NCBI GenBank assembly: GCA_964401485.1
Contig: CAYNYL010000003.1
Location: 18,365 to 82,364, forward strand
From: an uncultured Gammaproteobacteria bacterium
GTDB taxonomy: Bacteria > Patescibacteriota > Patescibacteriia > UBA9934
Direction of reading: 5' to 3'
DNA: 64,000 nt
How positions within the stretch are numbered: the first letter of the stretch is position 1; each line of letters starts with the position of its first letter. The notes under the pieces were generated by a model. That model was not told the origin of the DNA. It saw nothing but the letters and a program-made list of their open reading frames with translations, and searched no databases. Position numbers and translations under genes: made by a program. Shown here one piece after another: positions 9,612 through 18,554 of this stretch.

Positions 9612-9640
9612 TTGACTTTTTGGCCACAATATGCTATATT
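9612..9640 (+). promoter_or_regulatory. Sigma70-like promoter for the DGR target gene (TTGACT-17-TATATT, with extended -10 TGC)
   Basis: cTTGACTttttggccacaatatgcTATATT. Perfect 17-nt spacer. Confidence 0.55.
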
Positions 9641-9775
9641 AACTCCTGTACTTTTCATCTGCGCTAAGATTGGTTATAGCAAAAAGTGGCTTGATAATAG
9701 GCTATTTCTCGCTATGACCAATTCGGTCTACAGCTCCACCTCGGATAGAGGGATGCTAGAAAAAAGGATGACGCC

Positions 9776-10399
9776 ATGACCCAGATCATGACCCCATCGA
9801 AGACCACGACCGACGGCCAGATCATCAAGGCCACCGCGAACTTCCGAGCCATGCTCGAGAAGCATGCGGGGGAGTTCTCCGCCGATGCCGTGCAAACGGT
9901 GCTCGGCGATCCGGGACTTGCTGGCGAGATGCTCGCGGTGCTTCGTAGACGTGTCGAGGCCATCTCGAACATCATCGTTCGCAAGGTCACGGTGAATCGC
10001 ACCCGCTCCGCGCAGGATGCCCTCAAGGCCACGGGTCGTGTCATGTACACAGACTCCGCAGTCGTGGAAGCGGTGCCGAGCGGCGAGGGCGAGGAGGCGG
10101 AGATCTGCCTCTTCAAGCTCGACCTGTCGAAGCGCGGCGGATGGATCTCGGATGACGATCTCGAGAAAGAGTTCGATCTCCGAGGCCTGAAGCCCGTCGA
10201 CCCGTTCGCGCTCGCTGCGCTGAACGAGGCCGATCCGGCCTTCGCTGACGAGAAGCCGAACGCGACCCACTGGAAGGATGTGCAGGGCGACTGGTGCTAT
10301 GCGGTCTTCTACGGGTGGTTCGGCGAGCGCCGGGTTTCTGTCAACCGTCACGACTACGATTGGTACGGCAGCTGCTGGTTCGCCGGCGTCCGCAAGTAG
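9776..10399 (+). CDS. DGR variable (target) protein with C-terminal VR, likely CLec-type fold
   Basis: 207-aa ORF, markedly GC-rich and GC3-biased. Its last ~35 codons (DWCYAVFYGWFGERRVSVNRHDYDWYGSCWFAGVRK) form the VR that pairs with the downstream AAC-rich TR. Confidence 0.8.
   Translation: MTQIMTPSKTTTDGQIIKATANFRAMLEKHAGEFSADAVQTVLGDPGLAGEMLAVLRRRVEAISNIIVRKVTVNRTRSAQDALKATGRVMYTDSAVVEAVPSGEGEEAEICLFKLDLSKRGGWISDDDLEKEFDLRGLKPVDPFALAALNEADPAFADEKPNATHWKDVQGDWCYAVFYGWFGERRVSVNRHDYDWYGSCWFAGVRK
10290..10395 (+). repeat. DGR variable repeat (VR) at the 3' end of the target gene, ending in a GC-rich IMH-like segment
   Basis: About 105 bp aligned to TR at 10724..10828. 18 mismatches, 17 of them where TR has A. 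The last ~20 bp (ggttcgccggcgtccgcaa) are identical. Confidence 0.85.
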
Positions 10400-10449
10400 C
10401 CCTTCGCTCTCGAGTTCTAGGGGCTTTTGTCCCTTTGGACTTAGCTCTT

Positions 10450-10489
10450 GGCCCCGTTCCGATTCCTCGGGACGGGGCCTGTGTTTTTC
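10450..10489 (+). terminator. Hairpin downstream of VR (GGCCCCGT...ACGGGGCC plus T-run): target-gene terminator and/or DGR homing-associated stem-loop
   Basis: 8-bp perfect GC-rich stem followed by tgtgtttttc, about 50 nt after the stop. Confidence 0.55.
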
Positions 10490-10723
10490 AAATTAAGTTA
10501 TAATAACTTTGGTAGTAGGTGAGTAGGCGAACGGTCAAGGCTTTTCGCTACCGAATCCAGTATCCATGCGTTTCGAGTATTCGCGGCTATGGTTTCGAAT
10601 AGAGTGTCGCATGCAGACTCTTCAAAAATGAAGCTACTTGGTACGGGATTTTATGGTATTGTGATGCCGAATGCGATTCAGCTTCGAGAAATTCTAGGGG
10701 CGGTGGCACAGAAGGAATCCTGT

Positions 10724-10828
10724 ACAAATGCTATGCGATCTTCAACAGGTGGAACGGCGAGCGCCAGGTCAATGTCAACCGTAACGACAACGATTGGAAC
10801 GACAACTACTGGTTCGCCGGCGTCCGCA
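10724..10828 (+). repeat. DGR template repeat (TR)
   Basis: Invariant copy of VR. In the VR frame it encodes KCYAIFNRWNGERQVNVNRNDNDWNDNYWFAGVR. It is very rich in AAC (Asn) codons, the DGR hallmark. Confidence 0.85.
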
Positions 10829-10835
10829 ACTCGCT

Positions 10836-11237
10836 TCATTTCTCTCCGGCGTTTGTCGGAGAGTTTTGTTTGGTGAGTTGGCCGTTCCAACCGCCCAGCA
10901 TTTTGCCGACCTCATCTAGTTTGATCGAAAGAGCGATATATTTCTTATTGTCGAGCGACTTTGTCTCCCAGAGAATTAAAATCAGGACGCGTAGAGTGTC
11001 CATCTTTTTAATAGCGAGGCGCACATAAGGGTGCTTTTCGATAGGTGAGAGAAAACTGGCGGCAGATAGCGCTTCTATCGTCTCAATGAATAAAATGTCG
11101 ACCCGCTGACCGAGCGAGTGTCGGTGAGTCTTTGGGAGTTCGCGGTGATAGTTGTGCCAAATGATGTAGGACTCCTTGGTTTTACTTAGGACTGGCAAAA
11201 TTTTGTAAGGGGGGGGTACTATAGGGGTACGATTCAT
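10836..11237 (-). CDS. avd: Accessory variability determinant (Avd)-like four-helix-bundle protein
   Basis: 133 aa. YHRELPKTHRHSLGQRVDILFIETIEALSAASF matches the 4HB/Avd pattern. C-terminal LDEVGKMLGGW resembles the Bordetella phage Avd EVGRILGSW. Lies between TR and RT but on the opposite strand. Confidence 0.7.
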   Translation of the reverse strand: MNRTPIVPPPYKILPVLSKTKESYIIWHNYHRELPKTHRHSLGQRVDILFIETIEALSAASFLSPIEKHPYVRLAIKKMDTLRVLILILWETKSLDNKKYIALSIKLDEVGKMLGGWNGQLTKQNSPTNAGEK

Positions 11238-12224
11238 ATGCGTTTTGATTGTCCTTATGATGATATCATTTTAGTCGAAAATCTTCTTGAGGCATGGAAA
11301 GAATTTGTTCGGGGAAAGCGGTCGCGAGAGGATATCTTGCGGTTCGAGCGGGACCTCATGGGAAATATTCTTTTGCTTCACGATGAACTTAAAGCGAAGA
11401 CTTACACCCACTCCCCGTATCACCACTTTAAAATCACGGATCCAAAATTAAGGGATATTCACAAGGCTTCTGTTCGGGATCGGCTTTTACATCACGCGAT
11501 TCACCGTAAGTTGTCTCCCTTTTTTGAGAAACGATTTATTTCGGATTCGTATTCTTGCCAGAATGACAAAGGAACGCATCGTGCTTTACGGCGATTTAGA
11601 AAATTTGTAAACAAATGCTCTAAAAACTCAACGAAGACGGTTTGGGTTTTAAAATGCGATATTCGGAAGTTTTTTGCGAGCATCGATCAAAGGAGACTGC
11701 TGACGATCTTGGAAAGGACGATTGAAGATAAGGAATTACTTTGGCTGATTGCTCGGGTTGTTCGAAGTTTTTATGTTACGACCCCGGGTATCGGACTACC
11801 GCTCGGCAACCTCACCTCGCAACTATTTGTGAATGTGTATATGAACGAATTTGACCGGTTTGTAAAACATCATCTAAAGGCTCGCTACTATATTCGCTAT
11901 GCGGATGATTTCGTTGTGCTTGATACCGATCGTTTTAAATTGATCGAGACGCTGTTGAAAATGAACACATTTCTTAATGAAGAGTTGGAACTGTCACTTC
12001 ATCCGAATAAGACGTTTATCCAAACCGTCGCGTCAGGTGTGGATTTTCTTGGGTGGGTACATTTTTCTGATCATCGCGTCGTTCGTGGCACAACAAAACG
12101 GAGAATGCTTTCTAAGCTTCGGGATGGTGTGAAAAATGAAACACTACAGTCGTATCTTGGACATTTACGGCATGGAAATAGTCGGAAATTACTCGCGATA
12201 CTTCAAGATCGATTTATTTCTTGA
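11238..12224 (+). CDS. DGR reverse transcriptase
   Basis: YADDFVV catalytic motif. GLPLGNLTSQLFVNVYM is the DGR-specific IGxxxSQ-type motif. FKITDPKLRDIHKASVRDRLLHHAIHRKL, SYSCQNDKGTHRA and CDIRKFFASI align with bRT-like RT motifs 1 to 3. Confidence 0.9.
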   Translation: MRFDCPYDDIILVENLLEAWKEFVRGKRSREDILRFERDLMGNILLLHDELKAKTYTHSPYHHFKITDPKLRDIHKASVRDRLLHHAIHRKLSPFFEKRFISDSYSCQNDKGTHRALRRFRKFVNKCSKNSTKTVWVLKCDIRKFFASIDQRRLLTILERTIEDKELLWLIARVVRSFYVTTPGIGLPLGNLTSQLFVNVYMNEFDRFVKHHLKARYYIRYADDFVVLDTDRFKLIETLLKMNTFLNEELELSLHPNKTFIQTVASGVDFLGWVHFSDHRVVRGTTKRRMLSKLRDGVKNETLQSYLGHLRHGNSRKLLAILQDRFIS

Positions 12225-12867
12225 GAAATGGCCAGTCGGGTTTTGCTTCGAGGGTGATCCGTTCGTCGCCGACGACGGTGGTAAAGGAAAGTTTGTGGGC
12301 GAAGAGGGCGATTTGGCGACCGATGTCTTTGTTCGCGCCGTATTTTTTGTCGCCGACGATTGGGGTTTTGAGGGACTTCATTGCTACGCGGATTTGGTGT
12401 GAGCGTCCCGTAATCGGTTTCACTTCGACAAGCGAAATGCCGTCCTTTGTAGAGAGGGTTTTGTAGGTCAGCTCCGCGTACTTCGATCCCGGGACTTCCG
12501 TATTGTGGTAGGTTGCGAGATTTGTTCGCTTATTCTTTGAGAGCCAGTGTTTTACCGAGCCTTCTTTCGGTTCGGGAGTGCCCTCGACGGCCGCGAGATA
12601 GATTTTCTCAACGGTCCTTAGGCGGAACTGTTCGGAAAGACGCGTCGCGCCTTTTGATGTTTTTGCGAAAAGAACAATACCGCCGACCGGTCGGTCTAGG
12701 CGATGAACGAGGCCAAGGAATACCGCGCCCGGCTTTTGGTACTTCTCTTTAAGATAGTCTTTGACCATGTCCATTAAGGACGGATCGCCGGTTTTATCGC
12801 CCTGGACCGGAATCCCTGCCGGCTTTACGACGGCGATGGCATGGTTATCCTCGAAAAGAATGATCAT
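12214..12867 (-). CDS. RluA-family pseudouridine synthase
   Basis: VHRLDRPVGGIVLFAKTSKGA contains the HRLD...T motif of the RluA family. The 3' end overlaps the RT stop convergently. Confidence 0.8.
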   Translation of the reverse strand: MIILFEDNHAIAVVKPAGIPVQGDKTGDPSLMDMVKDYLKEKYQKPGAVFLGLVHRLDRPVGGIVLFAKTSKGATRLSEQFRLRTVEKIYLAAVEGTPEPKEGSVKHWLSKNKRTNLATYHNTEVPGSKYAELTYKTLSTKDGISLVEVKPITGRSHQIRVAMKSLKTPIVGDKKYGANKDIGRQIALFAHKLSFTTVVGDERITLEAKPDWPFLKK

Positions 12868-17786: not shown

Positions 17787-18554
17787 ATGAATCTTCTCCA
17801 AACTCTTTCGGATACCGTTGTAATGACGAAGCGTAACCTTACGCACTACCGACGCGTTCCGCTTCTTATTTTCTTCTCGACGGTGCAACCAACAATGTTC
17901 CTTCTCCTCTTTACCTTTGTTTTTGGAGGGGCTATTCAAACCGGAACAGGGTCGTACATCGCGTATCTTCTCCCAGCGATTCTTGTGCAAACGGTGATCT
18001 TTGGATCGATGAACACGGCGATTGGGCTTTCGGAAGATATGAAAATCGGACTCATCGATCGATTCCGATCGCTCCCTATGTCGCGCTTTGCGGTTCTCGC
18101 GGGACGAACGCTTGCGGACTCGGTGCGAAATATCTTTACGATGTCGATCATGATCGGGGTCGGCTACATTATCGGATTCCGTCTTGAAGTTGGGATTCAG
18201 TATCTTGCGATCGCACTCGCGAGCTCGATCTTCTTTGGATTCGCGCTTATGTGGCTTATGTGTTCGCTCGGACTCTCGACGAAGGATGGGCAGACCGCAC
18301 AAATGGCAGCGATGGTGTTCTCGTTCCCGCTCACGTTCGCGTCAAGCGCCTACGTTCCAACGGAAACAATGCCGTCGGCTCTCAAGCTCTTCGCGAACAA
18401 TAGTCCGGTTACGCATGCAACGGACGCTGCTCGAGAGCTTATTCTCACGGGTACAATGGACGGAAGTTTTACCGCGATGATGATTTGGACAACGGCGATT
18501 TTCCTCGTCTTTGCTCCGCTCGCCGTGCTCCAGTTTAAACGGATGAATCGCTAA
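17787..18554 (+). CDS. ABC-2 family transporter permease
   Basis: Six TM segments. Start re-anchored to the ATG in the TAATATG junction after the ATPase stop (the track start at 17589 overlaps the ATPase). Confidence 0.75.
   Translation: MNLLQTLSDTVVMTKRNLTHYRRVPLLIFFSTVQPTMFLLLFTFVFGGAIQTGTGSYIAYLLPAILVQTVIFGSMNTAIGLSEDMKIGLIDRFRSLPMSRFAVLAGRTLADSVRNIFTMSIMIGVGYIIGFRLEVGIQYLAIALASSIFFGFALMWLMCSLGLSTKDGQTAQMAAMVFSFPLTFASSAYVPTETMPSALKLFANNSPVTHATDAARELILTGTMDGSFTAMMIWTTAIFLVFAPLAVLQFKRMNR

Follow-up and report, generated by a model that had tools for sequence, protein, structure and literature searches.

The question raised by this locus is whether two closely similar repeats, one at the 3′ end of an unannotated gene and the other a few hundred nucleotides further downstream, are the working parts of a diversity-generating retroelement (DGR) or the product of some unrelated event. 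The locus is part of a stretch of 64,000 nucleotides (nt), referred to here as the window, that covers positions 18,365 to 82,364 of the forward strand of contig CAYNYL010000003.1 (GenBank assembly GCA_964401485.1) from an uncultured bacterium that is named as a member of the Gammaproteobacteria and is placed in the Patescibacteriota (Patescibacteriia, UBA9934) by its GTDB lineage; coordinates below are those of the window unless another contig is named. DGRs are, to our knowledge, the only prokaryotic system that deliberately hypermutates a chosen protein. The ultra-small bacteria of the candidate phyla radiation (CPR), or Patescibacteria, are the group richest in DGRs. We consider it very probable that the locus is a complete chromosomal DGR of the CPR/Patescibacteria type, consisting of a target gene that carries a variable repeat (VR), a template repeat (TR), an avd gene on the opposite strand, and a reverse transcriptase (RT) gene; judging from sequence comparisons, this DGR is probably active. 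The locus alone adds little. What makes it of interest is the size and anonymity of the target family, a well-supported, covarying RNA scaffold around the TR that is absent from Rfam, and also the GC-richness of the target gene, the CTT(N)G periodicity in its 3′ untranslated region (UTR), and the abutting start codons of avd and the RT gene. The cassette consists of the following parts.

9776..10399, plus strand: target (variable protein) gene, 207 amino acids (aa), with the VR at the C-terminus
10295..10395, plus strand: VR, equivalent to codons 174-207 in the target gene; the protein family is hypervariable at the columns that correspond to TR adenine codons
10375..10395, plus strand: 3′ end of the VR resembling an initiation of mutagenic homing (IMH) site, CTGGTTCGCCGGCGTCCGCAA; 21 nt that are the same in the TR, GC-rich and free of adenine save for the final AA
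10729..10829, plus strand: TR, non-coding, with 27 adenines overall; its 33 in-frame codons hold 25 adenines and include 7 AAC and 1 AAT
10836..11237, minus strand: accessory gene avd (133 aa), which converges with the TR RNA and lies head-to-head with the RT gene
11238..12224, plus strand: DGR RT gene, 328 aa, with an LGNLTSQ motif and a YADD catalytic box

The two repeats, which also turned up independently in a repeat search of the window as a 106-nt direct repeat with an offset of 434, can be aligned at that offset without gaps over a 101-nt core (VR 10295-10395 versus TR 10729-10829) with 15 mismatches. TR adenines account for 14 of these (six A to G, six A to T, and two A to C), which, given the 27 adenines in the 101-nt TR core, corresponds to a hypergeometric P value of 5e-9 for at least 14 of 15; in other words, 14 of the 27 TR adenines are substituted in the VR, and 73 of the 74 non-adenine sites are unchanged. 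The sole remaining mismatch, C in the TR (10770) and T in the VR (10336), is synonymous (GTC/GTT). A preliminary description of this DNA, made from the sequence alone, had placed 17 of 18 mismatches at TR adenines, with a single T-versus-C exception. The bias and the exception both stand, the mismatches being concentrated on TR adenines and not spread over the four bases, but the count comes down to 14 of 15, three of the positions counted (10292-10294) lying outside the repeat. The TGG/AAA difference at these three positions is for that reason ruled out as a case of adenine mutagenesis. On the TR side, AAA is part of the conserved GTACAA(A) tail of an RNA helix (H2, see below), and on the VR side TGG encodes W173, whose conservation across the family of proteins is 90% or more, so that this codon is not diversified.

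Read in the frame of the target gene (open reading frame [ORF] 9776-10399), the TR translates as CYAIFNRWNGERQVNVNRNDNDWNDNYWFAGVR, with 7 AAC codons and 1 AAT, which is the AAC-rich reading given in the preliminary description. In DGRs, the VR usually occupies the 3′ end of the target gene, TR adenines are at codon positions 1 and 2 (AAC), and stop codons cannot result. The template here offers 17 variable codons, or about 5e14 proteins, and a stop codon is impossible by any substitution of an adenine. The identical, GC-rich final segment of about 20 bp that had also been reported proves to be the 21-nt stretch at 10375-10395; it codes for the near-invariant WFAGVRK and, from its sequence and position, would function as the IMH. 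In DGRs, the direction of transfer is set by the IMH of the VR and by a differing IMH* at the end of the TR. Past this identical end the copies part at once (GTAGCC in the VR, CTCGCT in the TR), and the divergent sequence on the TR side, in an IMH*-like position, is the 3′ arm of RNA helix H1. No further copies of the VR were found in the 64-kb window on either strand when any base was allowed at the TR adenines. An ORF at 10589-10876 on the plus strand, which spans the TR, was considered and rejected as a gene: it has no family match, and the region is the covarying RNA described below.

The RT matches RVT_1 with an E value of 3e-22 and PHROG 1423 with an E value of 4e-108. Its best solved relative is chain 8ub7_A (E = 8.5e-47), labeled in PDB just as "Reverse transcriptase" and assumed here, in view of the accompanying paper and a length of 328 aa, to be the Bordetella phage RT (bRT); group II intron RTs reach only 3e-22. 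RTs of the DGR clade carry a YxDD catalytic box and the diagnostic motif [LIV]GxxxSQ, here LGNLTSQ, instead of the QGxxxSP of group II introns. DGR accessory proteins include Avd and HRDC. The 133-aa product of the minus-strand gene matches the PHROG 3206 family (“Avd protein of DGR”) with an E value of 2e-13, the NCBIfam model DivGenRetAVD with an E value of 3.4e-15, and the Pfam bAvd family (PF22296) with an E value of 3.4e-9 and 37.6 bits, the Pfam cut-off being 40 bits.

The same arrangement is found in many other genomes. The target protein has 519 close homologs, all of about 207 aa and none of them annotated, and a profile search expands the family to 1,395 clusters at 50% identity; its relatives occur in 150 species-level genomes, nearly all of them metagenome-assembled genomes (MAGs) of Patescibacteria/CPR. 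In about 45 of the 80 loci that were fetched, the layout is target (plus strand), TR, avd (minus strand), and RT (plus strand), and in these approximately 45 loci with the cassette the distance from the VR start to the downstream TR is 410-555 nt; more than 40 loci have avd beside the RT gene and on the minus strand. Across 45 related loci, 743 of 816 VR/TR mismatches (91%) fall at adenines, which make up 26% of the TR. The interpretation of the repeats as a VR/TR pair, already put forward in the preliminary description, is thus upheld by the adjacent DGR-type RT, the Avd gene, the position of the VR at the C-terminus of an ORF, and the recurrence of the adenine bias in 45 homologous loci. When the ORFs of the 80 loci were clustered, no conserved neighbors emerged besides the target, avd, and RT genes, and only antisense shadow ORFs recurred, so that the cassette appears to be self-contained and to reside in varied contexts. 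The genes that flank it in the window are ordinary ones, coding for an AcrB-family transporter and an RluA-type pseudouridine synthase. The targets of CPR DGRs are small and apparently non-secreted, and such a very large, well-conserved, and unannotated family makes a good model for what CPR cells recognize with them.

Not all members of the family are accompanied by the cassette. In 30 of 78 family loci (L002, L005, L006, L011, and 26 more), the target has no TR, Avd, or RT within 4 kb; a DGR at another site in the genome could diversify these orphan targets in trans, or the targets could be fixed alleles. Two target paralogs are present in some family loci. A leader-motif search of viral contigs gave 81 matches; among the 80 screened, 79 have no cassette and are chance matches, and just one carries a cassette, so that the element is not typically phage-borne.

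Strong, though indirect, evidence that the element works comes from a close strain, represented by a Logan contig (SRR16481187, positions 341-1500; L083). Outside the VR, the body of its target gene differs from that in the window at 2 of 519 nt (99.6% identity), and its TR differs from the TR of the window at 12 of 101 positions. The VR of L083 matches its own TR at all non-adenine sites, with 15 of 15 mismatches at adenines. Since the VR of L083 follows its own TR, the VR appears to have been rewritten from the TR after the strains separated; the comparison indicates that TR-to-VR copying took place after L083 and the strain of the window split. Either the TR of this lineage changes at a far higher rate than the gene body does, or recombination recently swapped the body.

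Around the TR, an alignment of 46 sequences, analyzed with RNAalifold, explicit pair counting, and 500 shuffles, revealed an RNA scaffold made up of the following elements.

10626-10640 with 10827-10841, plus strand: long-range helix H1, 13 pairs, 7 of them compensatory, 90% of cells paired
10641..10725, plus strand: structured 5′ domain of the TR RNA, about 85 nt, with H2 enclosing H3 and H4-6 (RNAalifold)
10641-10652 with 10714-10725, plus strand: helix H2, 12 pairs, 9 of them compensatory, 96.7% paired
10655-10660 with 10663-10668, plus strand: hairpin H3, covarying, inside H2
10681-10685 with 10697-10701, plus strand: small helix H4-6, covarying, inside H2
10842-10863, then TTTTGTTTGG to 10873, plus strand: stem-loop H7, with a 9-bp stem and a 4-nt loop; 5 of 5 counted pairs compensatory

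In total, the scaffold comprises 41 pairs, 30 of which have compensatory changes; 92.4% of the cells are paired, compared with 40-51% when the partners are slid, and none of the 500 shuffles reaches the observed scores. In the copy carried by the window, the scaffold pairs perfectly. Helix H1 was first found as an inverted repeat (I8). Its 5′ arm contains the motif AAAATGAAGNTACTTG, which most loci have kept at 84-137 nt before the TR, and its 3′ arm (10827-10841) reads CAACTCGCTTCATTT and shares the final 3 nt of the VR/TR homology. The 3′ arm of H2 stops 3 nt short of the TR. With the 5′ arms of H1 and H2 being contiguous, the 101-nt TR forms the loop that connects the 3′ arms of H2 and H1, and both boundaries of the VR/TR homology coincide with the ends of covarying helices, which suggests that H1 and H2 define the start and the stop of cDNA synthesis. 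H7 resembles a terminator as well and is antisense to the last codons of avd, a gene that ends 6 nt past the end of the VR/TR homology. Rfam recognizes nothing at the DGR, whether the whole window is searched at the gathering threshold or positions 10380-11300 at E values up to 1; its only matches are tRNAs elsewhere in the window. In the commonest DGR architecture of the CPR, such a scaffold provides a concrete and testable picture of how the template boundaries are set.

Two observations on the scaffold bear on its distribution and origin. In the predicted viral contig IMGVR_UViG_3300042876_001093 (L118), an equivalent RNA scaffold, an Avd gene (minus strand), and an RT gene (plus strand) at about 9665-12247 are combined with a different TR (ending in ...NVWNGNNRWVFVRRY) and with two VRs in two upstream genes of another target family, so that the scaffold belongs to the DGR lineage and not to one target. 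The 20-nt segment at 10638-10657 (TTGGTACGGGATTTTATGGT), located at the start of the scaffold, shares 75-80% similarity with TTGGAACGACAACTACTGGT, from the 3′ part of both repeats; this similarity may be due to chance or may be a trace of the origin of the scaffold.

A working scheme for the locus can be modeled on the paradigm of the Bordetella phage. Transcription would yield a non-coding RNA some 250-280 nt long (about 10600-10870), in which H1 and H2 would bring the ends of the 101-nt template together, displaying the TR as a single-stranded loop. The RT and Avd would then copy this loop into cDNA, with random bases opposite the adenines, and the cDNA would replace the VR at the 3′ end of the target gene, where the GC-rich segment 10375-10395, without adenines apart from its last two positions, could serve as the homing boundary. 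The outcome would be the re-randomization of up to 17 codons, giving about 5e14 possible proteins and never a stop codon. These codons would belong to the C-terminal, probably C-type-lectin-like (CLec-like), ligand-binding domain of a small protein that has no recognizable signal peptide or membrane anchor.

Several points weigh against reading the locus as a complete and active DGR. The Avd scores fall short of the curated cut-offs in both Pfam and NCBIfam, so that this Avd has to be considered divergent. A consensus scan gave no promoter for the TR RNA, and the ends given for the RNA are therefore putative. The priming site and the roles of the helices in the above scheme are borrowed from the phage, whose structured RNA is mainly 3′ of the TR, whereas the structured RNA here is mostly 5′. 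The VR is unchanged between the two independent assemblies of this genome that cover it (the other being L081), and the non-adenine mismatch at 10336/10770 shows that there has been some drift since the last homing event. The last two points would also fit a DGR that was recently inactivated, a fossil whose parts are still recognizable but which no longer diversifies its target, leaving the VR as a fixed allele; the 30 of 78 family loci that keep a target without a linked cassette likewise speak for it, as they show that targets can persist alone. Yet the RT, Avd, and TR are all intact, the catalytic YADD box is present, the scaffold is perfectly paired in this very copy, and copying from TR to VR within a very short evolutionary time is seen in L083. 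Besides, about half of the TR adenines (14 of 27) have been substituted with next to no change at the other sites (73 of 74 matching). We therefore regard recent inactivation as quite improbable.

A still more distant alternative is an ordinary duplication that copied part of the gene's 3′ end, in which the adenine bias would have arisen by chance and the RT would come from an unrelated group II intron, retron, or defense retroelement. The RT does have weaker matches to group II intron, retron, and Drt models, but it is far nearer to the DGR RT than to any other class, and an Avd gene lies beside it, with no intron or retron RNA recognized by Rfam. Chance would have to account not only for the bias at this locus (P = 5e-9) but also for its recurrence in 45 loci, and it would leave the VR and TR evolving in concert at the non-adenine sites. 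Judged by these comparisons, both the chance duplication and the unrelated retroelement can be considered effectively excluded, and a complete DGR of the CPR type, probably an active one, is the reading adopted in what follows.

The locus is a typical member of the known CPR-type DGRs. According to Wu et al. 2018 (PMC5758913), 90% of CPR DGRs have the B3 architecture, TR-(avd)-RT; Roux et al. 2021 (PMC8144416) assign CPR DGRs to cellular clade 2 and note that their targets are usually without transmembrane segments or known domains. The gene order and orientation found here, a target with a C-terminal VR followed by the TR, a reverse-strand avd, and the RT gene, are those of the B3 elements of PMC5758913, and the host group is the same, the relatives being almost all Patescibacteria MAGs. 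As in the clade 2 elements of PMC8144416, the target here lacks a transmembrane segment or a known domain, and the element is cellular and not viral. There is no essential difference between this locus and the published B3/clade 2 DGRs of the CPR; the passages compared make no mention of a covarying 5′ RNA domain or of a GC-rich target.

Comparison with the DGR of Bordetella phage BPP-1 (mtd-VR, avd, TR, Sp, brt) brings out both common features and differences. The two systems have in common the adenine-specific differences, the AAC-rich TR, the GC-rich identical 3′ end, the C-terminal VR in a protein that here probably has the CLec fold, homologous RTs (E = 8.5e-47), an Avd, a stem-loop directly 3′ of the TR, and a duplex that links the upstream and downstream flanks of the TR. 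Unlike in BPP-1, avd follows the TR here and is encoded on the other strand, which leaves only a short stretch of RNA, of about 45 nt, on the 3′ side of the TR, antisense to avd. The most extensive structured domain (H2-H6, about 85 nt) precedes the TR, whereas the thumb-ring and bRT-binding elements of the phage RNA come after the TR. The hairpin that follows the VR is 54 nt away and terminator-like, in contrast to the IMH-adjacent repeat of the phage. Finally, this DGR is chromosomal, in a CPR bacterium, and its target is not a tail-fiber protein.

In the ribonucleoprotein of the Bordetella phage, an Avd-binding stem-loop, of about 9 bp with a tetraloop, is found just 3′ of the TR, and a “cPRT Stop duplex” joins the flanks of the TR (Handa et al., preprint 10.1101/2023.10.23.563531); both elements were predicted in 207 of 278 DGRs, including those from the CPR (10.1101/2023.10.23.563531). 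H7, by its position, and H1, as a duplex between the upstream and downstream flanks, correspond to these elements of Handa et al. (10.1101/2023.10.23.563531). That survey covered just 40 nt upstream of the TR (10.1101/2023.10.23.563531), and the 5′ arm of H1, which lies 88 nt upstream here, would therefore be missed. A tentative idea, to which we give only limited credence, is that the locus encodes an undescribed kind of CPR DGR template RNA with a permuted ribonucleoprotein architecture, in which the TR loop would be closed by coaxial H1 and H2, the main protein-binding domain would lie 5′, and the 3′ part would be reduced to one stem-loop over the antisense end of avd. Such a permuted RNA possibly uses a different priming site.

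The target protein itself has a helical N-terminal part, at approximately residues 13-63, and the VR lies in its C-terminal domain, which spans about 145 aa; inspection of the sequence by eye revealed no hydrophobic N-terminal stretch. Searches of Pfam, NCBIfam, and PHROGs gave no match to the target, and a sequence search of PDB gave only chance-level matches (E of about 1). An AlphaFold2 model of the protein (pLDDT of 84.7; residues 71-190 mostly above 90 in blocks of 10 residues, with two blocks at 89) has a helical N-terminal part and a C-terminal alpha/beta domain, and a Foldseek search with this model gave no match. The VR-bearing domain is likely to have a CLec-like fold. Treponema TvpA (2y3c) and Mtd (1yu0) belong to the DGR variable proteins with characterized structures, and the archaeal AvpA may be a further one.

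Upstream and downstream of the target coding region, three further features can be distinguished.

9612..9640, plus strand: promoter-like site ahead of the target gene: TTGACT, 17-nt spacer, TG-TATATT (10/12, extended −10; consensus scan only)
10406..10445, plus strand: imperfect two-tier hairpin in the target 3′ UTR, with CTT(N)G motifs at a 7-8-nt period and a counterpart in related loci
10450..10489, plus strand: GC-rich hairpin (10450-10479) with a T-run, the probable intrinsic terminator for the target gene

The GC-rich hairpin that follows the VR had been noted in the preliminary description. The hairpin is real: folding confirms a 13-bp stem at 10450-10479, in which 10 pairs are G-C, closed by a loop of 4 nt; TGTGTTTTTC comes after it, and the fold z-score of the segment 10400-10500 is −5.35. 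The hairpin begins 54 nt beyond the end of the VR/TR homology and runs into a T-run, both of which make it terminator-like. Most related loci have a long perfect GC stem with a T-run at the equivalent place. PMC5758913 reports a GC-rich inverted repeat (cruciform) just downstream of the IMH in only 34% of DGRs, which means that such a repeat is not obligatory. Its sequence and position make this hairpin most likely an intrinsic terminator of the target gene and not an IMH-adjacent cruciform.

The second hairpin (10406-10445) begins 11 nt beyond the end of the homology, between the stop codon and the terminator. In this part of the target 3′ UTR (10400-10450 in the window and the equivalent place in L001-L080), 3-7 copies of CTT(N)G are spaced 7-8 nt apart. 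RNAalifold yielded no consensus structure for the target 3′ UTR, a region that does not align, and the folding was therefore judged by fold z-scores of individual sequences. The hairpin segment has a median z-score of −2.8 (46 DGR-linked and 29 orphan loci) and beats its shuffles in most loci, and the folding and the CTT(N)G motifs are equal in DGR-linked and orphan targets.

The target gene differs in composition from its surroundings. Its constant part (9776-10294) has a GC content of 0.63 and a third-position GC content (GC3) of 0.82, compared with 0.42 and 0.41, respectively, for the RT gene and a GC3 of 0.47-0.62 for the host genes. Across the family (loci L001-L080), the excess of the target over the flank is +0.11 at the median, with positive values in 95% of 62 loci, and that over the RT gene is +0.14, with positive values in 40 of 40 loci. 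Amino acid composition alone is insufficient to explain this GC-richness.

A 207-aa antisense shadow ORF (9728-10351, minus strand; 1491-2114 in L081) overlaps the target gene, and in a public assembly the gene caller picked this shadow ORF over the real target gene; members of the target family may therefore be missed or mis-stranded in annotations.

The start codons of avd and the RT gene abut head-to-head (CAT|ATG at 11235-11240), with zero intergenic space for a promoter. Three explanations suggest themselves: promoters located within the opposite gene, leaderless mRNAs, or read-through from the TR into the RT gene. In related loci, the avd and RT starts are repeatedly found to be near-abutting or overlapping.

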